A DNA stretch of 64,000 nucleotides, from assembly GCF_963921235.1 (NCBI RefSeq), contig NC_086097.1, positions 54,810,001 through 54,874,000 on the forward strand, written 5' to 3'. Below, one piece after another: positions 1-55,800 of the stretch (position 1 is its first letter; each line of letters starts with the position of its first letter). This DNA comes from Mobula hypostoma. Taxonomy: Eukaryota. The notes under the pieces were generated by a model. The model was not told the DNA's origin. It was given only the letters and a program-made list of their open reading frames with translations, and did not search any database. The translations under genes were made by a program, and so were the position numbers.

Positions 1-170
1 GCAGTTTCACACATTGTATGAAACTATCCTAAAATAATATGATTAATATTACCATTATATGAATTCAAAATATTTTATTTATTAATATTAATAATTATGT
101 TATGAAATAGAAAGTTGTAATCTTCCCAAAGGGGTAGTAGGCTTTCTTAGTATCATCTCTGTCTGCACAG

Positions 171-1663: not shown

Positions 1664-1791
1664 TCAAGACATATTGTGAAGTGGGTTTTCAAAGTACAAC
1701 GGTGAAGCTTCTGCCAATTGTTTCCGATAATACTTTCTGGATACAAGAAGAAATAGAAACATTTCCAGGATTTTCAGATGGTGATCTATTT
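1664..1791 (-). CDS. slc51a-like: OST-alpha-like coding exon 7, terminal (QIDHHLKILEMFLFLLVSRKYYRKQLAEASPLYFENPLHNMS*)
   Basis: 128 bp. Acceptor ttcttttacag, phase 1, TGA at 1666-1664. Confidence 0.9.
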
Positions 1792-19870: not shown

Positions 19871-21976
19871 GATTGTTGTAGGTAAAGCTTCAAATTAATC
19901 ACTAATCAAGGAGTTCAAGTAGGATTAAATATTTTGTTATAGTTCAGGACTGTTCCAAGTTCTTCCCAATAACTAGATTAATTTTTTTTGGATACTTTGT
20001 TGTATTAATTTAGAAATATTCATATCCAAGAGTTTGGTCACAGGAACCTCCTTGTCCAGAATTGCGAAGACTAAATAAAAATTCTGCAGTCAAGAGCAGG
20101 AAATTATCTCTAATAAAATGAGAGACAAATGAACTTTGTCATTTAACTCTTAAGTGATCAGCACATTTTGTGAGCTTTCAAAGTACTGTACTCAAACTTC
20201 TGTACACACAGCATCTGAAACAATGAAATGTATTTACAGTAATCGCTAAATCAATTGCAAAAATTATAAAAATGAAGTTTATTTTATCATGTCTGATAAT
20301 TATTCTACAATTCTACAAAGGGTTAAAAAAAATTATCAGTTAGTGACTGGTACAACCAAGCGAAAGCAAACAGCTTTATCATAAAATTGGAATGTCATAG
20401 GTAAACAATGAGAGGTAATGGAGGAGTTTTTAAAAGGTAATTTGTTAGAAGGGTGATATTTAATAATAATAAATAAGGGTTTTCTACAGAATACTGTATA
20501 TGCATTGGATTGGAATTACTTTAAGCTTGATTTCTTCAGGCTGTTTCCTCCAACTGTTTTGCTGTCTTTCACAGAAAATTTAAAATTATAAGCCATACGG
20601 AAATTCATGTTTAAAAAGCAATCACCGCTGATAATCTGAAAACAAATACATTTAGGTTAAACCAAGATAACACATATAAATGAACAAGGTTTTTTACTTT
20701 GAGAATGAAGAGAGAGAAGACAAGAAAGAAGTTTGGCCAATGGGGAAATTAGGGGAAAGATTAGGGGTAAAAACAGAAGTGAGCAGAGAGAAGGAATGTA
20801 GGAAGAACTGACCAAGAATGGGAAAGAAAAAGGAAGGAGGAAAGAAAGAGGAACAGAGATTTTTGTTTGTGCAAGAGGAGGTGGTTTTATGAGTGACAAG
20901 TTTGCTTTAACAGGGCAGAAACTGGTAAATTCTCCTTCAATGAAAGAATTAGTTCTTTTTTTAACTTGAAGTTGGTACTTGCTTATCATGTTTACTTTTT
21001 CTCTCGCTATGCAAAGTTTCATGGGATTTCCAAGGTTATTTGCTTTGGGCTTTCAATGATAGCACTCACATTTTGCTTGTTATTTCAGAAGGCTGCAGTA
21101 TATTTTAGACTATTATTTCTCTTGGGGATTGTTGGGAGATGCACAACTAACTCGTTCTGACATCAACATTTTGCAACAGCAAGCATAATTGCCTTTAAGC
21201 CAGCTCCTACCTTTGGCTCTATCATTCTTCTTCAGGTTAGAAAAAAACAGAAATTGAGTGCTCTCTTCACTTTCACAGATATATTTATTATTCCAAATAT
21301 GGATGTTGATTTTTTCCCTTTTGATAGCTTTAACATAAGATTGTGCCATATTACATCATGTTTACAAAACCATTGAAACTACTCATTGCTTTTAAATATA
21401 AAATAAACTACAAGTGCTAAGAAATTTCCTGTAAATACTTTTGCAAAATAATCTGTTAAGCAATTTCTGAGAAAACAACTTATCAGGAATTTCTGTTTTA
21501 TTTTCTTAATAACTATAGTAGGTCTTATTAACCAAGTTAAACACCTAAAGCTGTAACTACAGAGCATGAATGTAAATGAGCAGATTCACCTAAGTTTGGA
21601 TTATTGACTTGCCATCAAGACAGCCAACCACCAAAGCAAAAAACAGCATAAAATAAAAGTCTGCCTAGCTATTTTTGTGCCACAGCAAGTGAGGCAGAAG
21701 AAACAAGCTGTACATTTATCATTGTAACGTAGCAATGACCCAGATAGAAAATGGTGGTGTCATCATTCGTAAAGATTTGAAGCATATGGGCAGCATGAAT
21801 TTAGCCTCTTGAAAATGGCTGGGAGAATATTCATGAGTAGTGTTCCCTCTAATTTGTAATGACCAGTGTGTGCAAAAATTAGCACTGTGCAATGTTTTGC
21901 TCAGTGACAACAGCACATGTACAATGAATTTTATATATAGAGAAATTCATTTTAACTGCTAGGAAAACAGCTAGTC

Positions 21977-27428: not shown

Positions 27429-29589
27429 AAATATTACTCCACTTCTCCCAATTACAAATATTTTGCATTGCTACAATACACACAGGTAACACCAATTTCT
27501 GTATTGTATATTAATAATTCTCGTAGCTGCATGTTCCTGACCTCATGAGCTTTTGGTGTAGCAGTTTCTACTGTTTCATTAAGCCATTCCACTTTAAATG
27601 AATTAGCAGTTCTTTTGTGCTTCACACCCTTTGCTCCTTTGGAATTTGATATAGTGAATCAATAATTTCTTCAATAAAAACAGTATAAGTAAGCCAGTTC
27701 TAAAATCCACAGAGAAGTCATTACAAACTTCACATTGTCAACACTGTCCACATCAGGAACTGGAAAAGGAAATGTGATTGTGTACAATCGTGAAATATAC
27801 TTAACGTGCCAGTGAGGTCGAGGGTGACAACCTTTTGTGCACAGTTTAAATTCCTTTGTGCGCTAGTAGCAAAAGATGTGTGCGTGTGCACACCTCAGTG
27901 GGAACATTGTTCATGAGGGAGATCGGCAAATGTAAGCCATCAAAGAAAACAGAAAAATAGCAACTGAGAACCAAATATAAAATCTGAGCTGTTGCAGGAC
28001 AGAAAGAAGAGAATTCAATTTTAAACTATTTGATATCAATGTTTTGTTGACAAATATATATTGGGTTTAGAGCAGAAAGGTAAGAGTTCGATGGGATAAG
28101 ATGAGAAGATGGAAAATAGAATAAGAGAGTGATAGACCTTGGGTAAAGGGAGAATGGTGGTAGTGACACAGCAGTGATGGAATGGAGAGCAGAGGGAAAT
28201 AGCATGATATTGGGGGTTGTAGAGCAATAGGTTGGAGAGGGGTAATGGGGGGAAGAAAAGGATTGAGAGAAGCGGTCAGGGAGGAGTTTAGGAGAGGAGG
28301 ACCAAGGAAGGTAAAGAAGGATTTAGGAGAGCAGGCACTAAGGAAGAGCACGAGTGCCCATGTGCACATGTGAAGTGTGAGTGTATCTCAGCACAGGAGA
28401 ATGTTCACTGCAGTCATAACACCGGATTTTTTCCTGCTTAAATTTTGTTTTTTTCCCCACATTTTCATTGAAATAATCTAGAGTTTCTCAAACCAGTTAC
28501 TACTAACTCACAATAAATGCATGCCTTCATTTGGACAAGTACTCACAAACGATAATGAACCCTGAAGTGACTCTTCAGAGACCAAGAATTTTAAATCTAG
28601 CACTACCTAACAGTGGTGATTCCCATCCTCCTGTGTGCTTCTGAGGCAAAGCTAAGCTTCAAGACATTTCCCAAAACAGTGGAGAAATAACACTGATACT
28701 GTCTCCACAAATACTCTGAATCTCTGGGCAGAATGAGAACTAGGATTAGTGTCATCTCCCAATCCAACATATCCAGTATCCAGGCTCTAATCATATTCAA
28801 CCTGCTCTGGTTGTCTATTAGATCACCTGTAAGCCCACTACCAAGGTCCCAAGGAAAGGCAGTAAAGTGGATCCCAGTTAACTGGGCCATTTGTTAATCG
28901 GGGCAGCCACTTAGTTGGGACAACTCTTAAAGAACACAAGCTAATCGAGAAAATAGCTAAGATTCCCTTTGTTTATTTGGGATACTGTACCATCTAATTG
29001 AGACAGGAGCATCGGTCAGTCATGTGCATTTTGTCTGGCCATTAGGCACTACCCCATTCTTAGAGTGAACGGTTTTTAAACAGCGTCACTTGCATGCATG
29101 TGTTCAAAAAGCAGCGATTTTTGTCACTGATAGTTGACAAGTAATAAACAGTTAGATAATTCAGAACTGTTTTGCTCGCTGCAGTTTCAAGCATTCAGAC
29201 TTAGAGATGCCAGAAATGGCCGGGAGTGAAAGTGAAAAGACTTCACCACTTCACGTTAGGAACTATGTAGAATTTGAAGGTACCAACAATCATCTTGAAT
29301 GTTACGATTAAAATGAGGACTTGGAAAATGCAATTGCCAAAGAGCAGTCCATTATCTCCACTAGGGTTTGTGCTGATTTTGTTCATTTAGTCAATCAAAA
29401 GAACACCAGCGTACACTGAATGAATTCCTCTGTCGATAACTATTAGTTTTATAGTACTGCAGTAGCATTGTTAATGTTCTAATTTATTTTGTTCTTCATT
29501 TTAATACAAAATTTGTTACTCAGTTAAATAGTAGTTTCTCTATTTTATACCTTTTTAACTGTTTCCATGAAACTTCAGCCAATTGGGGG

Positions 29590-30263
29590 AGCAGGTACAG
29601 CAAGCAGTTAAGAAAGCTAATAGCATGTTGGCCTTCATAACAAGGGGAGTTGAGTATAGGAGCAAAGAGGTCCTTCTGCAGTTGTACAGGGCACTAGTGA
29701 GACCACATCTGGAGTATTGTGTACAGTTTTGGTCTCCAAATTTGAGGAAGGACATTCATGCTATTGAGGGAGTGCAGTGGAGGTTCACGAGGTTAATTCC
29801 CGGGATGGAGGGACTGTCATATGTTGAAAGATTGGAGCAACTGGGCTTGTATACACTGGAATTTAGAAGGATGAGAGGGGATCTGATTGAAACATATGAG
29901 ATTATTAAGGGATTGGACACGCTAGAGGCAGGAAACATGTTCCCGATGTTGGGGGAGTCCAGAGCCAGAGGCCACAATTTGAGAATAAGGGGTAGGCCAT
30001 TTAGAACGGAGTTGAGGAAAAACTTTTTCACCCAGAGAGTTGTGGATCTGTGGAATGCTCTGCCTCAGAAGGCAGTGGAGGCCAATTCTCTGGATGCTTT
30101 CAAGAAAGAGTTAGATAGAGCTCTTAATGATAGCGGAGTCAAGGGATATGGGGAGAAGGCAGGAATGGGGTACTGATTGTGGATGATCAGCCATGATCAC
30201 AATGAATGGTGGTGCTGGCTCAAAGGGCCGAATGGCCTGCTCCTGCACCTATTATCTATTGTC
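29590..30263 (+). mobile_element. Young CR1 3' fragment (intact ORF2 C-terminal ~195 codons)
   Basis: LVRPHLEYCVQFWSP, RRMRGDLIETY, FFTQRVVDLWNALP. ctattatctattgt tail. Confidence 0.92.
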
Positions 30264-30291
30264 TGCTTAATTGGGCCAAAATGTACTGGTC

Positions 30292-30711
30292 TCTACTTAC
30301 TGCCCATTCCGTCACTGGCATTTAGGGCAGCAATAAAGATCCTCCATCGCTGGCGGTGTTCGGCTTCCTTCATCATGTCAGTAGCTTCCTCTTGGTTTTC
30401 ACTGCCATCAGTCATGCAAGTCCTGGGTAGAGACTCAGCAATACCATCACACTCTGATGTAGAGGATTCTTCATTGCTGTTTCCAAAACAATTTTGTTTT
30501 ACCAGTCAGTGTTGTTAGCCCTGAGCTGAACCACCAAACCTGGAGATCTGGTGGACTACTTTTAGTCTGGTCTCCACCCTTTAACCTATTTGGCATGTGC
30601 GACCCTACCATGGGCCAAAGAATAAGGCCCTGTCTTCAACCAGCATAGCGCTCCGGGTCTTTGAGGCACACAAACCTCCAAACCACGACAAGGTTGTGGT
30701 CCTCTTGGAGG
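30292..30711 (-). mobile_element. 420-bp non-autonomous RTE-derived element
   Basis: 9-bp TSD gtactggtc (30283-30291, 30712-30720). 5' end ccttgtcgtggtttggagg resembles RTE 5' UTRs. Short gtaagtag tail. Confidence 0.65.
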
Positions 30712-30938
30712 GTACTGGTCCCAATGTGTCCTGATTAATGGGAATCCACTGTATTATGAATTGAAAGGCAGATACAAAGAGGCTTCAAGGAGATTTGGAC
30801 AACGTGAATGGACAATATGACAACACAGATAAATATCGAGTTATCTGCTTTGTTAAGACAAACAAAACTGCAGGTTATTTTCAAGTGAATTTAGAAGGAA
30901 AGGTTGATGTACAAAGGGATCTGGGTGTCCTGTATACC

Positions 30939-33900
30939 AGAAGACATAGGAGCAATGTCAGTCTCCCCAGCCCATCGAGTCTGCTGTGCCATTCCATCAT
31001 GGCTAATTTATTACACTCTCACCCCCATCCTCCTGCCTTCCCCCTGGGATCGCATGCTCTTACTGATCCAGAAGCTATCAGCCTCTGCTTGAAATGTACT
31101 CAGTGATTTGGCCTCCACAGCTGTCTGCAGTTATGAATTACCACCCTCTTCCTCATCATCTCTATTCTAAATGGAGGTCCTCTTCTGAAGTTGTGCCCTC
31201 TGGTCCTAGACTCACCCACTCAAGGAAACAGCTTCTCCACATCCACTCTATCTAGGCCTCTCAATATTCGATACATTCTGATGACGTTCCCCCCACCCCC
31301 CATTCTTCTAAACTCCAGTGAATATAGACACAGAACCATCAAATGCTCCTCATATGTTAACCCTTTCATTCCTGGACTATTTCTCCTGAACCTCTTCTGG
31401 GTTTTCTCCAATGCCCACATCTTTTCTTAGATTAGGGGCCCAAAACTGCTCACCGTACTTAAAGTGTGGTCTCACCAATGTCTTTTAATCCTCAGCATCA
31501 CATCCTTGCTCTTATATTCTATTCCTCTTGAAATGAATGACAACATTGCATTTGTCTTTCTTACTACTAACTTAACCTGCACATTAACCTTTAGGGAATC
31601 CTGTACTTGGTCTCCCAAGTCCCTTTGCACCTCTGATTTTTGAATTTTCTCCCCATTTAGAAGATAATCTATGTCTTTATTCCTTCTGCTAAAGTACATG
31701 ACTATACACTTCCCTACACTATATTCCATTTGCCACTTCTTTGCCAATTCTCCCAATCTGTCCAAGTCCTTCTGGAAACTCCCTACTTCCTTAATGCTAC
31801 CTGCCCTTCCACGCATCTTTGTATCATCTGCAAATATGGGCACAATGCCATCTATTCCATCCTCCAAATCATTGACATATAATGTGAAAAGTAACTGTCC
31901 CAATAATAATCTCTGTGGAACACCACAAGTCACCAATAGCCAGCCAGAATTGGCCCCTCTTATTCCCACTCCTTACCTCCTGCCAGTTAGCCAATCTTCT
32001 GTCCATGCTACTGTCCTTCCTGTAATGTCAAGAGCTCTTATCTTGTTAAGCAAACTCATGTGCAGCACCTTGACAAAGGCCTTCTGAAAATCCAAGTAAA
32101 CAATATCCACTAATGATCTTTTGTTTATCCTGTGTATTATTTCCTCAAAGAATTCCAAAAGATTTGTCAGGCGAGATTTCCTATTAAGGAGACTATGCTG
32201 ACTTTCACCTACTTTATCATGCACCTCCAAGTACCCTGAAACCTCATCCTTAATAATGGATACCAATATCTTTTTAACCACTAAAATCAGGCTGACTGGT
32301 GTATAATTTCATTTCTTCTGCCTCCCTCCATTCTTAAAGAGAGAAGTGACATTTGCAATTTTTTAGTCCTCTGGAACAATTCCAGAATCTAGTGATTCTT
32401 GAGAGATCATTACTAATGCCTCCACAATCTCGTCAGCTTCTTCTTTCAGAACCCTGGGGTGCATTCCGTCTGAGTCTAACCAGGTGACATATCTATCTTC
32501 AGACCCTTCAGCCTCCCAAGCACATTCTTCTTAGTAACAACAACTACACTCACTTCTGACCCTTGACACTCGAATTTCTAGAATACTGATAGTGCCTTAT
32601 ACAGTGGAGACTGACACAAAATACTTGTTTGTCTTTCTTCACCGTTACTACCTCTCCAGCATCATGTTCCAGTAGTCCAGTATCCACTCTCTTTTACTGT
32701 TTATATATCTAAAAAAATTGTTATCCTCTTTGATATTATTGGCTAGCTTACCTTCATACTTCACCTTTTCTGTCCTTATGGTTTTTTTAGCTGCCTTCTG
32801 TTGGATTTTAAAAGCTCCCCATTCCTCTAAATTCCCACTGATTTTTGCTATATTATATGCTCTTTCTTTTGCTTTTATGCTGTCTTTAACTTCCGTTGTC
32901 AGCCACATCCTCCCTTTAGAATACTTCATCAACTTTGGGATATATCTACCCTGCATCTTCTTAATTACCCTCAGAAGCTCCAACCTTTGCTGTTCTGACA
33001 CCATACCTGCTAATGTCCCCTTCCAATCAACTCTGGCAAGCTCTTCTCTCATGCCTCTGTAATTCACTTTATTCCACTGTAATAGTGATACATCTGACTT
33101 TATTTTTTCCCTCTCAGACTGCAGGGTGAATTCTGTCATATTATGATTACTGTTTCCTAAGGGTTTCTTTACCTTAAACTCCCAAAATAAATCTGGTTCA
33201 TTGCACAACGCCCAATCCAAAATGCCTCTCCCCTAGTAGGCTCAACCATAAGCTTCTCTAAAAAGTCATCTCATAGACATTCTACTAATTCCCTTTCTCG
33301 GGATCCACCACCAACCTGATTTTCCCAATCTGCTTGCATAATAAAATCTTCATGACTATCATAACATTGCCATCTTTACATGCTTTTTCCATCTCCCATT
33401 GTAATTTACATCCCACATCCTGGTTACTGCCTGGGGGCCTGTATGTAACTCCCATCAGGATCTTTTTACCCTTGCAGTTTCTTAACTCTACCCATAAGGA
33501 TTCCGCATTTTCTGATTCTGTGTTACCTCTTTCTAAGGATTTGATCTCAATTTTTACTAACAGAGGCACCCAACCCCTCTGACTATTTTCCAGTCCTTTC
33601 AATACAGGAGTGTCCTTAAGCTCCCAACTATGATCTTCTTTAGCCATGACTTATTTGAAGCCCTCACTGTCATACCTGCCAATTTCTAACTGTGTTAGAA
33701 GATCATCTATCTTATTCCACATACTGTGTGCATGCATTTATAACGTCTTCAGTCCTATATTCATCATCTTTTTTGAGTTTGTCCCTGTGTTACACTTCAA
33801 CTCATCCTACTGACGGCAATTTTGCCTCATCACCTGCCTGCCCTTCCTCACAGTCTCACTACACAATGCATCAATGTATATCAATTGCCCCATCCTCTGC

Positions 33901-33960
33901 CAAATTAGTTTAAATCCTCAACAGCTCTAGAAAATCTGCCCACAAAGATATTTGCCCCCC
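30939..33960 (-). mobile_element. Decayed CR1 LINE covering ORF2
   Basis: ORF fragments 33285-33647, 32648-33220, 31973-32281 (YLDFQKAF) and 31472-31969 (FADDTK). Confidence 0.9.
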
Positions 33961-35399
33961 CGTCCCTAACTCAGTTGTTAAATGCAAACATGCAGGTGAA
34001 ATAAACAGTTAAGAAGGGCATCTGACAACAATTATACAGGACCTAATGAGAACACAGCTGGAGTACTGTGTACAGTTTTAGTCTTCTTCCTAAAAACAAA
34101 ATGCAACAAAGACTTTTCAGACTGGTTCCTGGGATGGTAGAGCTTTTATCGGAGAGGACATTGAATCCACTCGGGCTCTATTACTGGAGTTTAGAAAAAT
34201 AAGAGAAAATCTCTTCTAAATGTAAAATACTGACAGGACTTGACAGGTTGGATGCAGAAAGGCTATTTCTCCTTGCTGCGGGGTCCAGAAAGATGGCTCA
34301 CTGCTTCAGGATGTGGGATAAGAAGTTTAGTATTCAGTTGAGAAGAGATTTCTTTACTGAAATGGTGGTGAACTTACGAACTTCTTTACCATAGAAGTTG
34401 TGGGAGGTCAAGTCACTGAATATATTTGAAAAGAAAACAAATAGATTTCTCGACACAGAAGGTGCAAAGGAATTCCCTTCTGTCAGTTCCTCTGCCTCTA
34501 TTGCATCTGTTCTCAGGAACATTCCAGAACATCTGCTGTATCTGTTTTTTTCAGTTAACATGATTTCCCATCCACCACAATTGATGCTGCCCTCACCCAT
34601 AGCTCCTTCACTTCCTACCCATTTCCTACCCTTCACTTCCTACCCTGTCAGTCCCTACATTGTCACGACTGGGATAGAGTTCCCCTTGTCCTCACCTTTC
34701 AGCCCACGAACCTCCATATCCACCTTGATTCTCCACAACTTCTGCATCTAGATCAGGGTCCTATTATCAGTCATATCTTTCCTCACCTCCCCCTTTCTGC
34801 TTTATAAATGACTCCTTTTCCACTCATTCCACCCCACAGATCTCCTTCCAGACACTTACCAATGCAAGTATGACATGTGCTACACTTGCCCCTACGTCTC
34901 CTCCCTCACCACCATTCAGGGTTCCAAACAGTCCTTGCATGTGAGCCAGCAAGGTGATGTTGACAGGGTCATTTATAGCATCTGGTGCTCCCAGTGTGGC
35001 CTCCTCTACATCGGTGAGACCTGACAGATTGCTGTACTCCTTCATCGAACACCTTCACTCCGCCTGCCGCAAAAGGCAGGATCTCCCAGCGGCCACTCAC
35101 TTTCATTTAACTTGCCATTACCACACAACTATGTCTATCTATCCCCTCCTCTTCTGCCATGATGAAGCGAAATGCAGGTTAGAGGAGCAACACCTTGTAT
35201 TCAGTCTGAGTCCCCTCCAACTTGATGGTATGGACATCAATTTCTATAATTAGAGTAACAACACCCAACTCTATTGTTGTTTATTTCTCTCCCCCCCCCC
35301 CCACCCCATTCTGGTGGCCCTTTCACCCTTTCTCTTCTCCTCAACTCTCATGATCTATTCATCACCTCCCTTCAGTTATCTCCTCCTTCCCTTTATTAC

Positions 35400-38300
35400 C
35401 ATAGAACCATAGAAACTACAGCACAGAAACAGGCCTTTTTGGCCCTTCTTGGCTCTGCTGAACCATTTTCTGCCTAGTCCCACTGACCTGCACACAGACC
35501 ATATCCCTCCATACACCTCCCATCGATGTATCTGTCCAATTTATTCTTAAATGTTAAAAAAGAACCCGCATTTACCACCTCGTCTGGCAGCTCATTCCAT
35601 ACTCCCACCACTCTCTGTGTGAAGAAGCCCCCCCCTTATGTTCCCTTTAAACTTTTCCCCCATCACCCTTAACCCATGTCCTCTGGTTTTTTTCTCCCCT
35701 TGCCTCAGTGGAAAAAGCCTGCTTGCATTCACTCTATCTATACCCATCATAATTTTATATACCTCTATCAAATCTCCCCTCATTCTTCTACGCGCCAGGG
35801 AATAAAGTCCTAACCTATTCAACCTTTCTCTGTAACTGAGTTTCTCAAGTCCCGGCAACATCCTTGTAAACCTTCTCTGCACTCTTTCAACCTTATTTAT
35901 ATCCTTCCTGTAATTTGGTGACCAAAACTGAACACAATACTCCAGATTCGGCCTCACCAATGCCTTATCATACCATTCCAGCTCTTATACTCAATACTTT
36001 GATTAATAAAGGCCAATGTACCAAAAGCTCACTTTATGACCCTATCTACCTGTGACGCCACTTTTAGGGAATTTTGTATCTGTATTCCCGGATCCCTCCG
36101 TTCCACTGCACTCCTCAGTGCCTTACCATTAACCCTGTATGTTCTACCTTGGTTTGTCCTTCCAACATGCAATACCTCACACTTGTCTGTATTAAACTCC
36201 ATCTGCCATTTTTCAGCCCACTTTTCCAGCTGGTCCAAGTCCCTCTGCAGACTCTAAAAACCTTCCTCACTGTCTACTACATCTCCAATCTTTGTATCAT
36301 CATCAAATTTGCTGATCCAATTTACCACATTATCATCCAGATCATTGATATAGATGACAAATAACAATGGACCCAGCATTGATCCCTGTGGCACACCACT
36401 AGTCACAGGCCTCCACTCAGAGAAGCAATTCTCTACTACCACTCTTTGGCTTCTTCCATTGAGCCAATGTCTAATCCAATTTACCACCTCTCCATGTATA
36501 CCTAGCGACTGAATTTTCCTAACTAACCTCCCATGCGGGACCTTGTCAAAGGCCTTACTGAAGTCCATGTAGACAATATCCACTGCCTTCCCTTCATTCA
36601 CTTTCCTGGTAACCTCCTTGAAAAACTCCAATAGATTGGTCAAACGTGACCTACCACGCACAAAGCCATGTTGACTCTCCCTAATAAGTCCCTGTCTATC
36701 CAAATGCTTGTAGATTCTGTCTCTTAGTACTCCCTCCAATAACTTACCTACTACCAACGTTAAACTTACTGGCCTATAATTTCCCGGATTACTTTTCGAT
36801 CCTTTTTTAAACAACGGAACAACATAAGCCACTCTCCAATCCTCCGGCACCTAACCTGTAGACAGCGATATTTTAAATATTTCTGCCAGGGCCCCTGCAA
36901 TTTCAACACTAGTCTCCTTCAAGGTCCGAGGGAACACCCTGTCAGGTCCCGGGGATTTATCCACTTTAATTTTCCTCAAGACAGCAAGGACCTCCTCCTT
37001 TTCGATCTGTACAGTTTCCATGATCTCACTACGTGTTTCCTTTAATTCCATAGACTTCATGCCAGTTTGCTTAGTAAATACAGACGCAAAAAACCTATTT
37101 AAGATCTCCCCCATTTCCTTTGGTTCCGCACATAGCCAACCACTCTGATCTTCAAGAGGACCAGTTTTATCCCTTACAATCCTTTTGCTCTTAATATACC
37201 TGTAAAAGCTCTTTGGATTATCCTTCACTTTGACTGCCAAGGCAACCTCATGTCTTCTTTTAGCCCTCCTGATTTCTTTCTTAAGTATTTTCTTGCACTT
37301 CTTATACTCCTCAAGCACCTTATTTACTCCCTGCTTCCTATACATTTCATACAACTCACTCTTCTTCTTTATCAGAGTTGCAATATCCCTTGAGAGCCAA
37401 GGTTCCTTATTCCTATTCACTTTGCCTTTAATCCTGACAGGAACATACAAATTCTGCACTCTCAAAATTTCTCCTTTGAAGGCTTCCCACCTACTGATCA
37501 CATCCTTGCCAGAGAACAACCTGTCCCAATCCACGCTTTTTAGATCCTTTCTCATTTCTTCAAATTTGGCCTTCTTCCAGTTAAGAACCTCAACCCTAGG
37601 ACCAGATCTATCCTTGTCCATGATCAAGTTGAAACTAATGGTGTTATGATCACTGGAACCAAAGTGCTCCCCTACACAGACTTCTGTCACTTGTCCTAAC
37701 TCGTTTCCTAACAGGAGATGCAATATTGCATCCCCTCTAGTTGGTCCCTCTATATATTGATTTAGAAAACTTCCCTGAACACATTTTACAAACTCTAAAC
37801 CATCTAGACCCCTAACAGTATGGGAGACCCAATCAATGTATGGAAAATTAAAATCCCCAACCACCACAACTTTATGTTTCCTGCAGTTGCCTGCTATATC
37901 TCTGCAGATTTGCTCTTCCAATTCTCGTTGACTATTGGGTGGTCTGTAATACAATCCCACTAATGTGGCCATACCTTTCCTGTTTCTCAGCTCCACCCAT
38001 AAGGACTCAGTAGACAAGCCCTCTAATCTGTCCAGCCTGAGCACTGCTGTAATATTTTCCCTAACAAGCAAAGCTACTCCTCCACCTTTCGTTCCTCTGC
38101 CTCGATCACATCTGAAACATCGGAACCCTGGAATATTAAGCTGCCAGTCCTGCCCCTCCTGTAGCCAAGTTTCACTAATTGCTATAACGTCATAATTCCA
38201 CGTGTCAATCCATGCCCTCAACTCGTCCGCCTTCCCCGCAATACTCCTAGCATTGAAATATATACACCTCAGAAGATTTTTACCACCACTCACAACCTTT

Positions 38301-38456
38301 CTATTAGCGGATTTGCTTGAACTTTTAAAATCATTTATTTTCACCCCAGCCACGCTGTCAGTTCTGGCACTCTGGTTCCCATCCCCCTGCAAATCTAGTT
38401 TAAAACCTCCCCAATAGCATTAACAAACCTCCCTGAAAGGATATTGGTCCCCCTGT
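35400..38456 (-). mobile_element. Young CR1 LINE with nearly complete ORF2 (APE+RT), inactivated by stops at ~36851 and ~36254 and a small deletion near 35965
   Basis: ORFs 36851-38392 (513 aa: YFNARSI, ISETWL, GDFNFP, SSDHN), 36254-36850, 36029-36238 and 35592-35960. (ctatggtt)n-like tail. Confidence 0.95.
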
Positions 38457-41260: not shown

Positions 41261-42456
41261 CTAATTACCGACCTCCAGCTCGAGTAAGTCCCTTCGATAC
41301 CACTCTTTGTCAACTATGCGCAAGCCAGTTCCGAATCCAAACAGTCACTTCACCGCCGACCACATGCATCTGAATCTTCTGGATCAGCCTCCCATGAGGG
41401 ACTTTGTCAAATGCTTTACTAAAATCCATGTAGACAACACCCACTGCCCTACCCTCATCAATTTCTCTCATCACCTTGTCAACATGTTCAGTCAAGTTGG
41501 CAAGACATGACCTGCCCTGCACAAAACTGTGCTGGTTCTCCCTAATTAGACCATGGGTTTCCAAATGTTTATATATCCTATCCGTAAGAAGTTCTCCAGC
41601 AATGTTCCTACAATCAACGTGAGAAACACCAATCTATAGTTCCCAGGATTTTCCCTTATTCCCTTCTTAAGTAGAGATACAACATTAGCCACTTGCCAGT
41701 CCTCCAGGACCTTGCCTGTGGCTGAAGAGGACACAAAGATTCTGGTCAAGGCCCCAGTGATCTCGTTTCTTCCCTCCTTCAATTACCTGGGGTAAAACCC
41801 ATCAGGCCCTAGTGACTTGATACTCTTAGGAGAGCTAATCCTTCCTCCTCCTTGACCTCTAAACACCCTGGTGTATTTAGACACTCAGCACCGGTCTCCT
41901 AGTCCTCCGTATCCTTTTCCTTGGTAATTACTGAAGCAAAGTTCTCATGAAGTACCTCACTCACATTCTCCGCACCCAAGCAAATGTTCCCCCGTTTTTC
42001 CTCGAGTGATCCCACCCTCTTGCTCGATGCTTGTATAGAATGCCTTGGGATTCACCTTAATCCTAATTGCCAAGGACATCTCATGGCCCCTCCTGGCTTT
42101 CCTAATTCCCTTCTTTATATTTTTTCTGGCTTCTTTATACTCATCATGTGCTTCATTTGATCCAAACTTCTGAAGTTTTACATACTTTTCCTTTTTTTCC
42201 TTGACTAAATTCATCACCTCTCTGGTTATCCAATGTCCTCTTATTTTTCCATCCCCGTCCTTCCTTCGAACAACAACATGCCTTTCCTGTACTATACACT
42301 GGGAGGCCCATTCGTTAGTTAGGGCCTTCAGCATTTTGGGCACCGAGGGAGAGAGGAAGAGGAGAGCCATCCGCAGTACCACCGATGCGGCAGAGAGGGC
42401 CTCAAGATGGCTGTGGCTCAAAAGAGGGGAGCCATGGAGTCATAAGTAGCTAGCCA

Positions 42457-42574
42457 TCTGGACACAAGCTGGGGTCTGATCGGCCCCGGCTGGGTCACCT
42501 GGAGGAGGTTGTATGATGTTGAAAGACCCGAAACACCCGATGATTCCAGGAACATCACTGAAGATGTGTCCAGA
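42457..42574 (+). ncRNA. Non-circularly permuted hammerhead ribozyme, family A, 5' terminal-repeat copy
   Basis: GUA site 42511-42513, GAAA 42530-42533, CUGAAGA 42558-42564. Stem I tgatgtt/aacatca, gggtc/gaccc, cctgga/tccagg, closing stem tctggacaca/tgtgtccaga. Confidence 0.75.
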
Positions 42575-42797
42575 AGTATCAATAGATGTATGTACACAGC
42601 TTACACCCTGAGTTAATCAGTGACAACCAGGAAAGACTGGGTGACAACCACGAAAAGAGTGGTGACGACTGGAGAGTCAGTGACAGCCCGGAGAGACGGC
42701 AACCAGGGCAGAACGGGCTGGCAACCCAATCTGCATCCTCTGAAAGGAGGACCCCCACAAAAGCCACAAAGAATCTAAGGAGAAGATACCCCCAGGG

Positions 42798-45700
42798 GTG
42801 CCCGAGAGGGGGGGGGAGGATGAGCACCCCAGTCGGATGGACACAACGACATCAAACCCAGGCAATGAACAAACGACGATGAGGAAGCAGTGTGCATGTG
42901 GCAAAATCTGCAAGAACGATTGCGGTTTGAAGATCCACCAAGCGAGGATGAAGTGTTTGGCGGGAGCAGGAGCAGCACAACGCGCAGGTGTCCAACCTGG
43001 TGAGATGAAGGAGGGGCCAGGCCCGGAGTCACCCCATAGTGCCCGGAACCTCCAAGTGTTGCAAACTGATCCCTCGAACATGAAGTCTAACAGGAGGTGG
43101 ATCAAATGGCCTGCAGCTAACATGATTTCACTGTGGAAGCAGTTTGATGAAGATGTTAACCAAATTCTGGAGGCAACGGCAAAGGGAGGGGTTGATAGGA
43201 AGCTGCAAGCCATGACAACAATGATTGTCAGTATTGCAGCTGAACGGTTCGGAGAAGAGGAGAAGGAAGGCTCCAAAACATCTTACTCGAAGAACCAAAG
43301 AGCATTGAGGATCCACAACATCAGGCAGGAGATGAAAGCGCTGAAGTCCCAATACAAGGAGGCAGGAGAAGAGGAGCGCATTGGCTTGGCCCAGCTGATG
43401 TGCATACTATGAAAGAAGATCAGGGTCCTCCGCCGGGCAGAGTGGCATCGGAGGCAGCGTCGTGAAAGGGCCCGAAAACGTGCTGCCTTTATCGCCAACC
43501 CCTTCAAGTTCACCAAGGAGTTGCTGGGGGAGAAGTGCAGTGGGAAACTGGCCTGTTTGCAGGAAGACATAGACCAACATCTGAAAGAGAGCAGGAGTTG
43601 GGAGAGTGCGACATCCCAATAGACCCAACTGAACCGGATGTGCAGTTCGACATGTCAGAGCTGTAACTAAAGGAAGTCAGAGAGGTTGTCCGCAAAGCAA
43701 GGGCAAGCTCGGCTCCAGGACCAAGCAACACCTCGTACAAAGTGTACAAGAACTGCCCCAAACTCCTGCTGCGTCTGTGGAAGATCCTGAGAATGTTCTA
43801 GAGAAGGGGGAAGATCCCAGAACGGTGGAGAGTGGCTGAAGGGGTGTGGATCCCGAAGGAGGAAAACACCACCCAGATAGATCAGTTTGGCATCATCTTC
43901 CTGCTGTGTGTCAAGGCGAAGATCTTCTTCAGTGCCGTTTCTAACCGGCTGTGCACCTACCTGGCAAAGAACACCTATATTGATACATCAGTCCAGAAGG
44001 GTGGCACTTCAGGGATGCCGGGCTGTCTGGAGCATACCAGTGTGGTGACACAGCTCATCAGGGAGGCCAGAGAGAACAAGGGCAACCTGTCAGTGTTGTG
44101 GCTCGACCTGGCAAATGCATATGGCTCCATTCCGCACAAACTGGTGCAGCTCACACTGACCAAATATCACGTCCCCAGCAGAATCAGAAACCTTATCGCT
44201 GATTATTACAGCAACTTCAGGATGAGGGTCTCTTCAGGAGCAATTACATCAACCTGGCACAAGGTGGAGGTCAGCATCATCACAGGGTGCACTATCTCAG
44301 TGACACTGTTCTCCCTAGCCATGAACATGCTCACTAAGTCTGCTGAATCAGAGTGCAGAGGGCCCAGAATGAATTCCGCTCAATGGCAACCACCTATCAG
44401 GGCATTCATGGATGACCTCACAGTCACCACAGCATCAGTCCCAGGCTGCCAGTGGATTCTGCAAGGGCTCGAAAAGCTGGTGGAGTGGGCCCAGATGCGT
44501 TTCAAACCTGCCAAATCAAGATCGATGGTGCTGAGGAAAGGGAAGGTGGAGAACAAGTTCCAGTTCAGCATCGCAGGCACAGCCATCCCAACCATCACAG
44601 AAAAGCCAGTCAAGAGCTTAGGCAAAGTTTTTGACAGCTCTTTAAGGGACACAACATCCATTCAGGCAACATGCACCGAGTTGGATGGCTGGCTGTAATC
44701 TGTGAACAAGTCTGGCCTACCTGGGAAGTTTAAAGCCTGGGTGTATCAGCGTGGCATTCTTCCCAGAATCCTGTGACCCCTCCTCGTCTATGCAGTTCCA
44801 ATCTCGACAGTCGAAACCTTAGAGAGGAGGGTTAGCAACCACCTCAGGAGATGGCTGGGGCTGCCAAAGAGCCTGAGCAGCATCGCACTCTATGGACACC
44901 ACAACAAACTGCAACTGCCCTTCAAATCCTTGGAGGAAGAATTCAAGGTAACAAGAGTCAGAGAAGTGCTACAGTATAGGGACTCAAGTGACCCGAAGGT
45001 GGCTAGAGCAGGGATCCAAGTAAGTACTGGTAGGAAGTGGAGGGCAGAGGAAGCTGTTCAGGAGGCAGAGGCGCGGCTGCGTCATAGGAGGCTGGTGGGA
45101 GTGGTCACACGAGGCCGAGCTGGGCTAGGATCCTTTCCAACTCCCCAAATGGACACCAGAGGCAAGGAAAGGCGTTGTCTAGTTCAGGAGGAGGTGAGAG
45201 CAGTAGTGGAGGAGATGAGAGCCTGCAAGGCGGTGGGAATGAAGCAACAGGGTTGGACAAGATGTGAGAATGTGGTTGAGAGGAAAGTGACCTGGGCTGA
45301 TCTTTGGAAAGCCAAACCACACCGCATCCAATTTCTCATCCAGGCAGTGTACGATGTGCTTCCAAGCCCATCAAACCTGCACACATGGGGCAAGGCAGAG
45401 TCATCTGCGTGCCCACTGTGCTCCAAGCGAGGAACTCTGGCGCACATCCTCAGCGGCTGCGCAAGGGCACTTGGTGAGGGACGGTACAGGTGGAGGCATG
45501 ATCAGGTCCTGAAGACCATCGCTGAAGCCGTCAGCGCAGGAGTTGAGTGGGCGAAGCGGTCCCAACCCTCCAAGCAGACCATTGCCTTTGTCAGAGCTGG
45601 GAAGCAGCCAATACCTGCCAAAAGAATATCTGCAGGCATTCTGACCTCTGCAAGGGACTGGCAGCTGTTGGTGGACCTCGAAGGGCAGCTGAAGTTCCCC

Positions 45701-46063
45701 AACCATATCGCAGCCACCACCCTGTGACCAGACATTGTCCTAGTGTCTGAGTCGACTAAGCAAGTGGTGCTGCTGGAGTTGACAGTCCCATGGGAAGATA
45801 GCTTGGAAGAGGCCTTTGAAAGGAAGCTCTCCAAGTACGCAGGACTGGTCAGCAACTGTCAGCAGGCTGGATGGAGAGCGAGGTGTCTCCCAGTGGGGGT
45901 TGGTTGTAGGAGATTCGTAGCCCGTTCTTTAGTTAGGGCCTTCAGCATCTTGGGCATCGAGGGAGAGAGGAAGAGGAGAGCCATCCGCAGTACCACCGAT
46001 GCGGCAGAGAGGGCCTCAAGATGGCTGTGGCTCAAAAGAGGGGAGCCATGGAGTCATAAGTAG
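42798..46063 (+). pseudogene. Disrupted ORF: Zn finger + RT + CCHC + restriction-like endonuclease
   Basis: CACGKICKN..GLKIHQARMKC, LDLANAYGSIPH, AFMDD, CPLC..GTL.HILSGC, RYRWRHD, PDIVLVSESTKQVVLLELTVPWE. Stops at 43410, 44696 and 45725, plus frameshifts. Confidence 0.92.
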
Positions 46064-46070
46064 CTAGCCA

Positions 46071-46188
46071 CCTGGACAGAAGCTGGGGTCTGATCAGCCC
46101 CGGCTGGGTCACCTGGAGGAGGTTGTATGATGTTGAAAGACCCGAAACACCCGATGATTCCAGGAACATCACTGAAGATGTGTCCAGA
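46071..46188 (+). ncRNA. Permuted hammerhead, family A, 3' terminal-repeat copy
   Basis: GUA 46125-46127, GAAA 46144-46147, CUGAAGA 46172-46178. Two substitutions in the closing stem. Confidence 0.72.
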
Positions 46189-46731
46189 AGCATCAATAGA
46201 TGTATGTACACAGCAGTACACTGTTTAATTCATCTTTAAACACCTTCTGCATGTCTGATGTGGACTTGTCAGAGAAAAGGTGTTCCCAATTAACTCTTCT
46301 TAGTTCCTGCCTAATGCCCTTGTAATTTGCTCTACTCTAATTTAAAGCTCTCCCACAAGGAGTTGTGGTCACTGTTCCCCAGCTGCTCACCCACTGAAAG
46401 GTCAGTCACCTGGCCTGGCTCATTACCCAACACCAGGTCCAGTGTGGTCCCTCCTATCACTGGACCTTCCAGATACTGATTGAAGAAACCTTCCTGGATA
46501 CACTTAACAAGCTCTGCCCCATCTAGGTGCCTCTTGCACTAAAGTCCCAGCTTATATAAGGAGTTGAAATCTCCCATGACACAATCCTATTATTTTTTAC
46601 ATTTTCTTAAACTGAATACCAATGTCCCGGTGGCTATTGGGGTGGGGGGAGCATTATAGTTCCACGTACTGATCCATGCTCAAAGTTCATCACCCTTACC
46701 CATAATACTAGCAGTAAAATATGCACACTTA

Positions 46732-48837: not shown

Positions 48838-49165
48838 TATGACTAACTGTGCATGTATTAAAAAAAGCAAATTAGCAAAAGAGAAAATAAAAGCTTGGAT
48901 CTATACTGTGCCTTTCATAACCTTAGGATATTAAAAATGCTCTACAGTAAATTAAGCCCTACTGAATGTACTCCACCCCAAAAGAACATTGGATGGATCT
49001 CTGGGCCTTATGACTGAGGATGTTTTTAAAATCCATTTATTTTCAGTGAAAGCCACATAAACCTCACTGCCTGAAAGCATTAGCCTTGATTAGCCTTAGG
49101 TTCCCTAAGTGCCTGGCAAAAAAAGGAATACCCAGCCTGGCTAGCCTGCATCTCGAATTATTTCA

Positions 49166-50737
49166 AGGACACAACATCCATTCAGGCAACCTGCACCGAG
49201 TTGGATAGCTGGCTGAAATCTGTGGACAAGTCTGGCCTACCTGGGAAGTTTAAAGCCTGGGTGTATCAGCATGGCATTCTTCCCAGAATCCTGTGGCCCC
49301 TCCTCGTCTATGCAGTTCCGATCTCGACAGTCAAAACCTTAGAGAGGAGGGTTAGCAACCACCTCAGGAGATGGCTGGGGCTGCCAAAGAGCCTGAGCAG
49401 CATCGCACTTTATGAACACCACAACAAACTGCAACTGCCCTTCAAATCCTTGGAGGAAGAATTCAAGGTAACAAGAGTCAGAGAAGTGCTACAGTATAGG
49501 GACTCAAGTGACCCGAAGGTGGCTCGAGCAGGGATCCAAGTAAGTACTGGTAGGAAGTGGAGGGCAGAGGAAGCTGTTCAGGAGGCAGAGGCGCGGCTGC
49601 GTCATAGGAGGCTGGTGGGAGTGGTCACACGAGGCCGAGCTGGGCTAGGATCCTTTCCAACTCCCCAAATGGACACCAGAGGGAAGGAAAGGCGTCGTCT
49701 AGTTCAGGAGGAGGTGACAGCAGTAGTGGAGGAGATGAGAGCCTGCAAGGCGGTGGGAATGAAACAACAGGGAGCTTGGACAAGATGGGAGAATGTGGTT
49801 GAGAGGAAAGTGACCTGGGCTGATCTTTGGAAAGCCGAACCACACCGCATCCAATTTCTCATCCAGGCAGTGTACGATGTGCTTCCAAGCCCATCAAACC
49901 TGCACACATGGGGCAAGGCAGAGTCATCTGCGTGCCCACTGTGCTCCAAGCGAGGAACCCTGGAGCACATCCTCAGCGGCTGTGCAAGGGCACTTGGTGA
50001 GGGACAGTACAAGTGGAGGCATGATCAGGTCCTGAAGACCATCGCTGAAGCTGCCAGTGCAGGCGTTGAGTGGGCGAAGCGGTCCTGACCCTCCAAGCAG
50101 ACCATTGCCTTTGTCAGAGCTGGGGAGCAGCCAATACCTGCCAAAAGAACATCTGCAGGCATCCTGACCTCTGCAAGGGACTGGCAGCTGTTGGTGGACC
50201 TCGAACGGCAGCGGAAGTTCCCCAACCATATCGCAACCACCACCCTATGACCAGACATTGTCCTAGTGTCTGAGTCGACTAAGCAAGTTGTGCTGCTGGA
50301 GCTGACAGTCCCATGGGAAGATAGCTTGGAGGAGGCCTTTGAAAGGAAGCTCTCCAAGTACGCAGGACTGGTCAGCAACTGTCAGCAGGCTGGATGGAGA
50401 GCGAGGTGTCTCCCAGTGGAGGTTGGTTGTAGGGGATTCGTAGCCCATTCTTTAGTTAGAGCATTCAGCATCTTGGGCATCGAGGGAGAGAGGAAGAGGA
50501 GAGCCATCCGCAGTACCACCGATGCGGCAGAGAGGGCCTCAAGATGGCTGTGGCTCAAAAGAGGGGAGCCATGGAGTCATAAGTAGCTAGCCATCTGGAC
50601 ACAAGCTGGGGTCTGATCAGCCCCGGCTGGGTCACCTGGAGGAGGCTGTATGATGTTGAAAGACCCGAAACACCCGATGATTCCAGGAACATCACTGAAG
50701 ATGTGTCCAGAAGCGTCAATAGATGTATGTACACAGC
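49166..50737 (+). mobile_element. 5'-truncated second copy of the Hero-like family A element
   Basis: Highly similar to 44646-46214. ORFs 49201-50088 and 50266-50586. Same 3' end ...gtacacagc. Confidence 0.93.
50594..50711 (+). ncRNA. Permuted hammerhead, family A, third copy
   Basis: GUA 50648-50650, GAAA 50667-50670, CUGAAGA 50695-50701. Closing stem intact. Confidence 0.73.
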
Positions 50738-52819: not shown

Positions 52820-55800
52820 AGAACATAGAATAGTACAGCACAGTACAGGCCCTTCAGCCCACAATGTTGTGCCGACCCTCAAACCCTGCCTCCCATGTAA
52901 CCCCCCACTTTAAATTCCTCCATATACCTGTCCAGTAGTCTCTGAAACTACACAAGTGTATCTGCCTCCACCACTGACTCAGGCAGTGCATTCCACGCAC
53001 CAACCACTCTCTGAGTAAAAAACCTTCCTCTAATGTCCCCCTTGAACTTCCCACCCCTTACCTTAAAGCCAGGTCCTCTTGTATTGAGCAGTGGTACCCT
53101 GGGGAAGAGGCGCTGGCTATCCACTCTATCTATTCCTCTTAATATCTTGTATACCTCTATCATGTCTCCTCTCATCCTCCTTCTCTCCAAAGAGTAAAGC
53201 CCTAGCTCCTTTGATCTCTGATCAAAATGCATACTCTCTAAACCAGGCAGCATCCTGGTAAATCTCCTCTGTACCCTTTCCAATGCTTCCACATCCTTTC
53301 TATAGTGAGACAACCAGAACTGGACACAGTACTCCAAGTGTGGCCTAACCAGAGTTTTATAGAGCTGCATCATTACATCGCGACTCTTAAACTCGACTTA
53401 TGAAAGCTAACACCCCATAAGCTTTCTTAACTACCCTATCTACCTGTGAGGCAACTTTCAGGGATCTGTGGACATGTACTCCAAGACCCCTCTGCTCCTC
53501 CACACTACCAAGTATCCTGCAATTTACTTTGTACTCTGCCTTGGAGTTTGTCCTTCCAAAGTGTACCACCTCACACTTCTCTGGGTTGAACTCCATGTGC
53601 CAGCCTACTACTGCATCCTATCAATGTCTCTCTGCAATCTTCGACAATCCTCTACATTATCTACAACACCACCAACCTTTGTGTCATCTGCAAACTTGCC
53701 AACCCACCCTTCTACCCTCACATCCAGGTCATTAATAAAAATCACAAAAGGAGAGGTCCAGAACCAATCCTTGTGACACACCACTAGTCCCAACTCTTCA
53801 ATCCGAATGTACTCCCTCCATCACGACTCTCTGCTTTCTGCAGGCAAGCCAATTCTGAATCCACCTGGCCAAACTTCCCTGGATCCCATGCCTTCTAACT
53901 TTCTGAATAAGCCTACCATGTGGAACCTTGTCAAATGCCTTACTAAACTCCATGTAGATAACATCCACTGCACTACCCTCATCTATATGCCTGGTCCCCT
54001 CCTCAAAGAACTCTATCAGGCTTGTTAGACACGATCTGCCCTTCACAAAGCCATGCTGACTGTCCCTGATCAGACCATGATTCTCTAAATGCCCATAGAT
54101 CCTATCTCTAAGAATTTTTTCCAACAGCTTTCCCACCATAGGTGTAATACTCACTGGTCTATAATTACCTGGACTATCCCTACTACCTTTTTTGAACAAG
54201 GGGGCAATGTTCGCCTCCCTCCAATCCTCCGGTACCATTCCCGTGGACAACGAGGACATAAAGACCCTAGCCAGAGGCTCATCAATCTCTTCCCTTGCCT
54301 CGTGGAGCAGCCTGGGGAATATTCCGTCAGGCCCCGAGGACTTATCCGTCCTAATGTATTTTAACAACTCCAACACCTCCTCTCCCTTAATATCAACATG
54401 CTCCAGAACATCAACCTCACTCATATTGTCCTCACCGTCATCAAGTTCCCTCTCATTGGTGAATACTGAAGAGAAGTATTCATTGAGGACCTCGCTCACT
54501 TCCACAGCCTCCAGGCACATCTTCCCACCTTTATCTCTAATCGGTCCTACCTTCACTCCTGTCATCCTTTTGTTCTTCACATAATTGAAGAATGCCTTGG
54601 GGTTTTCCTTTACCCTACTCGCCAAGGCCTTCTCATGCCCCCTCCTTGCTCTTTTCAGCCCCTTCTTAAGCTCCTTTCTTGCTTCCCTATATTCCTCAAT
54701 AGACACATCTGATCCGTGCTTCCTAAACCTCATGTATGTTGCTTTCTTCCACCTGACTAGATTTTCCACCTCACTTGTCACCCATGGTTCCTTCACCCAA
54801 CCATTCTTTATCTTCCTCACCGGGACAAATTTATCCCTAACATCCCGCAAGAGATCTCTAAACATCGACCACATGTCCATAGTACATTTCCCTGCAAAAA
54901 CATCATCCCAATTCACACCCGCAAGTTCTAACCTTATAGCCTCATAATTTGTCCTTCCCCAGTTAAAAATTCTCTTGTCCTCTCTGATTCTACCCTTTTC
55001 CATGATAATGCTAAAGGGCAGGGAATGGTGGTCACTGTCCCCCAGATGCTCACCCACTGAGAGATCTGTGACCTGACCTGGTTCGTTACCTAGTACTAGA
55101 TCCAGTATGGCATTCCCCCTAGACGGACTGTCAACATACTGTGACAGGAATCCATCCTGGACACACTTAACAAACTCTGCCCCATCTAAACCCTTGGAAC
55201 TAATCAGGTGCCAATCAATATTAGGGAAGTTAAAGTCACCCATGATAACAACCCTGTTACTTTTGCACCTTTCCAAAATCTGCCTCCCAATCTGCTCCTC
55301 TGTATCTCTGCTGCTACCAGGGGGCCTATAGAATACCCCCAATAGAGTAACTGCTCCCTTCCTGTTCCGGACTTCCACCCATACTGACTCAAAAGAGGAT
55401 CCTGCTACATTACCCACCCTTTCTGTAGCTGTAATAGTATCCCTGACCAGTAATGCCACCCCTCCGCCCCTTTCCCCCGCTCTCTATCCCTTTTAAAGCA
55501 CTGAAATCCAGGAATATTGAGAATCCATTCCTGCCCTGGTGCCAGCCAAGTCTCTGTAATGGCCACTACATCATAATGCTATGTATGTATCCAAGCTCTC
55601 AGTTCATCACCTTTGTTCCTGATGCTTCTTGCATTGAGGTACACACATTTCAGCCCTTCTACCTTCCTACCTTTACACCATTTATTCTGCTTCTCTTTCC
55701 TCAAAACCTCTCTATATGTTAGATCTGGCTTTACTCCATGCACTTCTTTCAATGCTCTATCACTCCGGGTCCCATCCCCCTTGCAAATTAGTTTAAACCC

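Follow-up and report, generated by a model that had tools for sequence, protein, structure and literature searches.

Why does a retrotransposon stand directly behind a copy of its own 3′ end? The question is raised by a 64,000-nucleotide (nt) stretch of the Mobula hypostoma genome (contig NC_086097.1, positions 54,810,001–54,874,000; hereafter, the window), in which a sequence-only reading had described an element without long terminal repeats (non-LTR), flanked by a ribozyme-bearing direct repeat, and had predicted a self-excised, possibly circular RNA. The best single explanation, with a chance of being right that lies close to even, is a ribozyme-made circle, where a predicted permuted hammerhead in both repeats would excise a 3614-nt RNA that is ligated to a circle and reverse-transcribed for more than one turn.

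A decayed retrotransposon behind a copy of its own 3′ end

The window copy carries a direct repeat of 295 nt (42306–42600 versus 45920–46214; 97% identity; offset, 3614 nt) that holds the final 47 codons and the 3′ untranslated region (UTR) and abuts the 5′ UTR without spacer or poly(A), all as first described, and a GUA is present at both of the predicted cleavage sites (42513 and 46127). The unit has one open reading frame (ORF) bearing a reverse transcriptase (RT), a CCHC knuckle, and a C-terminal PD...E.K motif, which we take to be the motif of a restriction-like endonuclease (RLE). In the window copy this ORF is broken by stops at 43410, 43664, 43799, 44696, 44774, and 45725 and by frameshifts; the element is a decayed RT/RLE retrotransposon copy, with the following parts.

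42306–42600, + strand: the element's own 3′ end, copied upstream as a pseudo-LTR (positions 3320–3614 of the unit)
42594–42607, + strand: fixed head-to-tail junction ACACAGC/TTACACC, with the break at 42600/42601
42601–46214, + strand: single 3614-nt unit, very likely a HERO-type RT/RLE retrotransposon
42601–42775, + strand: 5′ UTR (end approximate)
42776–46063, + strand: decayed single ORF (start approximate), with at least six in-frame stops and frameshifts
43886–44623, + strand: RT domain (RVT_1, E 3e-17)
45275–45466, + strand: zinc knuckle region of the CCHC type (zf-RVT match at E 3.8e-5, which falls short of the curated cut-off)
45728–45832, + strand: PD...ELTVPWE...K motif (in translation)
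46190–46214, + strand: short terminal hairpin and AC-rich tail, with the fixed 3′ end of the unit at 46213/46214

The window element very likely belongs to the HERO clade (Zebulon type). The protein is 69% identical to Tetraodon Q7T1J8/AAN12398.1 over the tested 314 amino acids, and BAC82599.1 clusters with the latter; AAN12398 is presumably Zebulon and BAC82599 presumably HEROTn. A profile of 24 relatives has R2 proteins as its closest solved structures (E 5e-38). Insertion is dispersed, with 876 exact 3′ ends genome-wide and flanks without a strong consensus past 1–2 nt, and HERO is described in the accessible text of PMC4640811 as one of five RLE clades, with mostly non-specific insertion. 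The unit combines an RLE motif with an R2-like RT, where a Penelope element has GIY-YIG and a telomerase-like RT; it is 3614 nt long with an RT/RLE ORF, where a retrozyme is small, non-coding, and non-autonomous; and it differs from an LTR retrotransposon in its variable repeat (23–1038 nt across the family), the lack of target-site duplications (TSDs), and the lack of an integrase family among the domain matches of the window element. The closest protein relatives are from teleosts (80–87% identical; P0002–P0020), and one relative, L175, is 86% identical to the unit in DNA; horizontal transfer is possible. Relatives of the element were absent from the viral contigs, and three short pieces of HERO sequence in two bacterial genome assemblies (L225–L227), located on very small scaffolds and probably contamination, were not used.

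Layout and ends across the family

A junction-spanning query was biased towards copies with the repeat (30 of 30), hence 5′-side queries were used. With the 5′ UTR as the query, 25 of 30 loci had an upstream 3′ piece, three began at position 1 without a piece, and two were truncated. Genome-wide, the exact 5′ 22-mer was found in 65 copies, with the upstream piece direct in 61, inverted only in one, and lacking in three; L131 likewise begins exactly at the unit start, and L096 has both a direct and an inverted piece. The pieces range from 23 to 1038 nt (median, 217; n = 61), so that a repeat fixed at 295 nt does not hold for the family, while the junction register is ungapped in 60, and 52 read ACACAGC/TT exactly. 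Among 19 further loci from the protein search, all five that reach position 1 carry an upstream piece. Metagenome contigs L176, L178, L181, L186, and L189 also pass from 3′ UTR into 5′ UTR, with the caveat that metagenome contigs of repeats may be collapsed, circular-looking sequences (L189 has identical 25-nt ends).

At the other end of the unit, 117 distinct free 3′ ends keep G3613 in 89% and C3614 in 62% before passing into the flank, and none is followed by poly(A). No TSD was found in 47 composite loci (mean shared word, 4.51 versus 4.43 shuffled; seven rearranged or truncated loci excluded). The genome-wide comparison proposed with the sequence-only reading therefore came out in its favour, with variable 3′ fragments at one fixed junction and no TSD. 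Most copies are 5′-truncated, given 876 exact 3′ 41-mers against only 65 exact 5′ 22-mers, and no two of the 65 5′ ends lie one unit apart, leaving no tandem master array in view. A second, older HERO family of the same genome (L228, G000:C68:17105800–17112800; 64% nt identity) has a 209-nt upstream piece; each of its repeats holds the motif described below, its 3′ ends are sharp, and its stem III shows the mismatch found in the window family. A 67% match to its 5′ part lies in the window at 2531–2738 (− strand).

Origin of the upstream piece

Upstream pieces share rare variants with the 3′ end of their own copy. Non-majority letters common to both numbered 52 versus 14.7 expected in 42 loci and 82 versus 26.9 expected in 74 loci (0/10000 permutations), and 37 versus 8.9 with CpG sites and the longest locus, L136, left out (0/10000 permutations). 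A chance tandem insertion or assembly artefact, named with the sequence-only reading as the alternative, is barely credible, as is self-targeting, against this sharing of private variants: collapse to a circular-looking form, as in L189, can occur among metagenome contigs of repeats, but the 61 of 65 genomic loci have unique flanks, pieces of variable length, and a divergence of about 3.8% between the two repeat copies.

Internally deleted derivatives of 0.8–1.1 kb (L097, L108, L116, L117, and L126 among them) join unit positions of about 530–730 to about 3180–3370 and retain the predicted hammerhead motif and both ends. They account for 14 of the 65 5′-anchored copies and 10 of 89 first-pass copies, the latter taken from the first 100 listed of the 876 matches (10 skipped; one was an upstream piece). 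In L108 and L126 the identical deletion junction occurs in the body and in the upstream piece, and the deleted template was therefore copied more than once round. Deletion junctions are diverse (32 distinct among 34), with anti-correlated donor and acceptor positions (Spearman −0.45, P 0.008). Splicing or a single master was rejected as their source on account of this diversity and the lack of a frame preference. A long-range duplex near unit positions 510–546 with 3275–3305 was not accepted as the cause: it is the best of 59 windows here but ranks only 4th, 8th, and 6th of about 60 in three other families, and the region was chosen post hoc.

The body of the family (unit positions 1–3610) is mosaic, with an r2 of about 0.02 beyond 30 nt at 62 non-CpG sites, also for sites at 33–50% frequency, and of 0.56 for sites 7 nt apart. 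The near absence of linkage beyond about 30 nt is unusual for a family of long interspersed nuclear elements (LINEs) and points to extensive switching between templates or to gene conversion.

A predicted permuted hammerhead in the 3′ UTR

The hammerhead of the sequence-only reading survives as a covarying, hammerhead-like fold, though not as a standard one: its blocks are permuted, and Rfam scans of the window region and of seven related loci returned no ribozyme family. A descriptor (UH, GAAA, CUGAnGA, and stems I and III, with pairing and an H other than G as conditions) matched 18 of 50 related loci from metagenome contigs, always directly after the ORF, and had no match in three shuffles of 163 kb. 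Four additional helices could be drawn in 14 of the 18 matches, giving a six-helix RNA with the hammerhead core in non-circular S-G-C block order (strand order: X5, hairpin H, Y5, Z5, III5-UH, I5, linker, Y3-GAAA-III3, Z3, I3-CUGAnGA-X3). The core (CUGAnGA, GAAA, UH, and stems I and III) is conserved, with invariant columns in the alignment, and with the condition on position 17 lifted, G occurs there only in the degenerate L211 and L218. In the window the motif is placed as follows.

42460–42571, + strand: upstream copy of the predicted permuted hammerhead (cut predicted after 42513; the loop palindrome reads UGAUCG, 42477–42482)
46074–46185, + strand: predicted permuted hammerhead, 3′ copy (predicted cut after 46127)
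3′ copy, first part, + strand: X5 at 46074; H at 46081–46105 (UGAUCA at 46091–46096); Y5/stem II at 46106
3′ copy, second part, + strand: Z5 at 46112; III5 at 46121; GAAA at 46144; CUGAAGA at 46172; X3 at 46179–46185

In a structure-blind MAFFT alignment of 16 sequences, whose relatedness inflates the counts, 83% of alignment cells pair compared to 68.6% when shuffled, and both partners change in 23 of 35 pairs (0/500 shuffles; slid controls, 6–12). Two-sided changes fall in helix X (9/9), H (6/8), and Y (2/5; closing G-C in 14/16), and X and Y pair with the upstream strand at 91% and 97.5%. Stems III, I, and Z are under-counted, MAFFT having shifted each by one column; anchored tallies, for which pairing was a selection condition, give several pair types at most of their positions. 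A model of X, H, and Y matches 26 of the 50 loci, 11 of them outside of the training set, and also finds both L228 repeats and an older copy in the window. The latter (14715–14833, + strand) is a degenerate copy of the fold from an older HERO-like family, with a HERO-like C-terminal coding stretch directly upstream; each of its six helices is paired through different sequences, CUGAnGA has decayed, and the loop does not read UGAUCA.

A direct stem II, as in published type-SGC ribozymes, was rejected, with pairing between block C and block G never reaching 5/5 in 18 instances. From the sequences, stem II would be helix Y, completed by the upstream strand, and helices X and H, lying between A9 and G10.1, would then form a four-way junction. 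The H loop palindrome UGAUCA occurs in 24 of the 25 instances listed and is absent from L186 and from the copy at window 14715; that it forms a kissing dimer is a guess. Of the 93 3′ copies in the window family, 71 have an intact core. The 3′ UTR fold is predicted to be a self-cutting hammerhead ribozyme.

The predicted cut and the end of the element

An element ending at its cut sites was not borne out. The 3′ ends lie 86 nt downstream of the predicted cut, and the distance is 86–91 nt in five families (two ends set by eye or BLAST limit). Because of this offset, the circle model also needs internal priming, and copying has to begin within the template or at an end produced separately, in the manner of a Penelope element; in the window unit, reverse transcription would start at the fixed 3′ end (46213/46214).

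With the predicted cut at 87 nt, none of the 89 first-pass copies is shorter than 108 nt, and only two of the 61 upstream pieces end within 2 nt of it (85–89 nt; 1.1 expected), 41 being longer. A strong stop at the cut was accordingly rejected, and on the same counts the templates were continuous across the cut, either uncut or re-ligated. Upstream pieces, read as the product of a second pass, are shorter than first-pass copies (median, 240 versus 510; lengths ≥42 nt, first-pass copies as listed), and 37 of the 61 are long enough to hold the whole motif. Contig L181 (1–90) begins one base past the predicted cut of its own upstream repeat, which may be chance.

These counts bear on a somewhat unlikely alternative with a linear template. 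Here the upstream ribozyme would free the RNA's 5′ end from a host transcript, in the way of the R2 5′ ribozyme, and the 3′ copy would stay uncut; the RT, primed internally, would run to the cut end, 87 nt beyond the junction, and transfer to the matching 3′ region, either in the same RNA or in another. Strand transfer predicts a pile-up of 87-nt repeats, which the two pieces at 85–89 nt do not provide, but it explains the fixed ends, the partial allele sharing, and the mosaicism without ligation, and R2-type RTs are described as jumping between templates in the accessible text of PMC8857657. Allele sharing is also lower downstream of the cut (5/56) than upstream (27/164), a difference that is not significant (P 0.19); a break in allele sharing at the cut was rejected on this basis.

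Weighing a circular template

A circular template could operate as follows. Read-through transcription would cross a copy with an upstream repeat of at least 141 nt, the RNA would cleave itself at both GUA sites, and the 3614-nt piece would be ligated into a circle. The protein would nick a non-specific target and prime internally, 86 nt beyond the ligation point. The RT would usually drop off early; on completing a turn it would halt at its own start (3–4 of 65) or displace onward and so regenerate the repeat. It would also switch often between two RNAs, perhaps joined by the UGAUCA loop, and the mosaic family and the allele mismatches would be the consequence. Of the double cleavage and ligation proposed by the sequence-only reading, the layout, the fold, and the partial allele sharing are in support; the need for internal priming and the discordant alleles are not, and neither circles nor cleavage were observed.

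Several observations weigh against a ribozyme-made circle. At site 3596, 14 of 70 loci are discordant between the two repeats (3 both-minor, 53 both-major), as are 5 of 14 at site 3208, compared to concordance in 23 of 24 at site 3337 and 18 of 21 at site 3317 (CpG). Mutation after insertion is not enough to account for this degree of discordance between the two repeats, and site-specific hypermutation at 3596 may be a further reading of it. Pieces of 3–22 nt are absent (4.4 expected, P about 0.01); such a break at the junction would suit re-initiation just as well. A U-C mismatch interrupts stem III in 74 of the 93 window-family 3′ copies, and by the X/H/Y model two of the 50 loci, L209 and the junction-bearing L189, are without the motif. 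RNA reads for relative L175 came from four raw-read runs (551, 0, 8, and 0 reads), of which the three with 0–8 reads are no test; the 551 reads, mostly sense, are from one rRNA-depleted run (X24; 6% of the run, low depth). At this depth there is no read-end pile-up at the predicted cut, which reads cross; on the junction of the window, depth is 13–16 across the cut and about 2 past the junction, and 12 reads exit into the flank. Abundant circles in that sample are thus not supported by the run. The accessible text of PMC11167929 reports that ribozyme mutants of the Penelope element PAc still insert in vitro and that no RNA-seq ends map to the cut. The strict one-circle model fails, since the two repeats only partly share alleles, the family is mosaic, and in the one L175 run junction reads are few and cut ends lacking. 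As to L189 itself, positions 1150–1600 belong to a distant HERO-like element whose 3′ UTR has a different, GC-rich fold without an Rfam match.

The missing short pieces and the near-random pairing of alleles at site 3596 would both follow if a linear, unit-length RNA were made from an internal promoter at the junction and the RT jumped end-to-end to a second RNA, with the hammerhead serving read-through processing, translation, turnover, or only protein binding. Three of the 65 copies and L131 begin exactly at the unit start, as expected of such RNAs, L189 has the junction without the motif, and CAGTGAC (42618–42624) is conserved just inside of the 5′ end, where it and short hairpin repeats in the 5′ UTR are found in distant families too (by eye, six families); template jumping by the R2 RT (PMC8857657, accessible text) fits as well. 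This explanation is unlikely nonetheless: about 94% of full-length events would have to jump without gain or loss of a base, the template would be destroyed by a self-cutting motif placed 86 nt from its 3′ end, and alleles are shared with the own 3′ end 3–4 times more often than by chance.

The simplest reading is plain read-through of partial-tandem sources, with the upstream piece inherited and shortened but never regenerated, a scenario reportedly proposed for Zebulon too. It permits fixed differences between the repeats, such as at site 3596, and matches the scenario proposed for PAc (PMC11167929, accessible text). Under it repeats could become shorter but never longer, yet distant families still have the layout; L108 and L126 carry their deletion junction upstream, and no full tandem array exists among the 65 5′ ends. 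Plain read-through is thus improbable. A wider version of the ribozyme-made circle, in which HERO/Zebulon are circular-RNA LINEs that unite a permuted four-way-junction hammerhead, a UGAUCA kissing pair, internal priming by an R2-type protein, retrovirus-like template switching, convergence with Penelope, and retrozyme-like mini-circles of their own, is tentative and, taken whole, rather doubtful.

Other features of the window

The genome is 3.5 Gb in size and carries CR1-like repeats. Besides the element under study, the window holds the following.

49161–50737, + strand: separate 5′-truncated copy of the same family, with the identical end base
21956–23509, + strand: 517-aa ORF that matches RVT_1 weakly and whose C-terminus resembles GIY-YIG (by eye); it has the look of a true Penelope-like element
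29571–38419 and 53798–55483: several ORF fragments resembling CR1-type LINE endonuclease/RT (by eye)

Comparison with known systems

Bouneau and colleagues reportedly described a tandem layout in 2003 (Genome Res 13:1686) for Zebulon, a non-LTR element of the pufferfish Tetraodon nigroviridis, and the confinement of this layout to Penelope elements and retrozymes, assumed in the sequence-only reading, does not hold if that account is correct. The window element resembles HERO/Zebulon in its RT, CCHC, and RLE protein, its dispersed insertion, and, by that account, its tandem structure. The ribozyme, internal priming, deleted derivatives, and mosaicism were not found for HERO/Zebulon, nor was any link between HERO and hammerheads, in the literature searched, a search that left subscription journals, Repbase Reports, supplements, and the 2003 text outside and is not proof of absence.

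R2 elements have one 5′ ribozyme resembling that of hepatitis delta virus, insert site-specifically in rDNA, lack a terminal repeat, and prime at the RNA 3′ end. The likeness of the window element to R2 lies in the solved structures closest to its protein profile and in a ribozyme tied to the element RNA.

The Penelope elements (PLEs) are closer in layout. Partial tandems and hammerheads are standard for PLEs in the accessible text of PMC8557442 and PMC4209133, and PAc shares with the window element the partial tandem pseudo-LTRs, an occasional inverted 5′ piece, and the hammerhead within the repeat (PMC11167929, PMC8557442, PMC4209133). PAc also has a fixed 3′ end about 85–92 nt past the hammerhead cut, in an AC-rich stretch; its RT starts internally, 111–118 nt into the ORF, and its hammerhead cuts at +26 (PMC11167929, accessible text). 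PLEs combine an RT of the telomerase-like kind with a GIY-YIG endonuclease and carry minimal type I hammerheads, whereas the window element pairs an R2-group RT with an RLE, and its predicted permuted hammerhead lies entirely within the 3′ UTR. Retrozymes, whose hammerhead repeats are proposed to yield circular RNA templates (PMC7229834; bioRxiv 10.64898/2026.07.22.740005; accessible text of both), are small and non-coding compared to the autonomous-type, 3.6-kb coding window element, and the 0.8–1.1-kb deleted HERO derivatives are the nearer analogue.

Type-SGC hammerheads cleave in vitro, and the accessible text of PMC10085705 (Eckert et al. 2023) reports none from the genomes of known organisms. 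Its HRIMA-1 and the HERO motif have in common the order of site, GAAA, and CUGAnGA, a short linker from stem I to stem II, and an extra helix tying stems I and II, to which helix Z would correspond by analogy. In the published ribozyme, block C passes straight into stem II, whereas in the HERO motif the upstream strand would complete stem II, and the motif lies in animal retrotransposons. The six-helix motif, with its S-G-C order, two helices inserted before stem II, and UGAUCA loop, is apparently new. With moderate confidence, the window element would work like a Penelope element and carry a new variant of the permuted hammerhead.

Implications

If true, animal genomes would have yielded their first non-circularly permuted hammerhead, in an RNA of 112 nt, and the assumption, as worded in the accessible text of PMC10085705, that CUGAnGA leads straight into stem II would be broken. 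R2-group and Penelope elements would have independently reached the same combination of pseudo-LTR, hammerhead, and a 3′ end some 88 nt beyond the cut. Fish have young HERO copies whose ORFs are intact, which makes the origin of pseudo-LTRs testable, and an RLE protein that primes internally, possibly on a circular RNA, would be relevant to the engineering of R2 for gene insertion.

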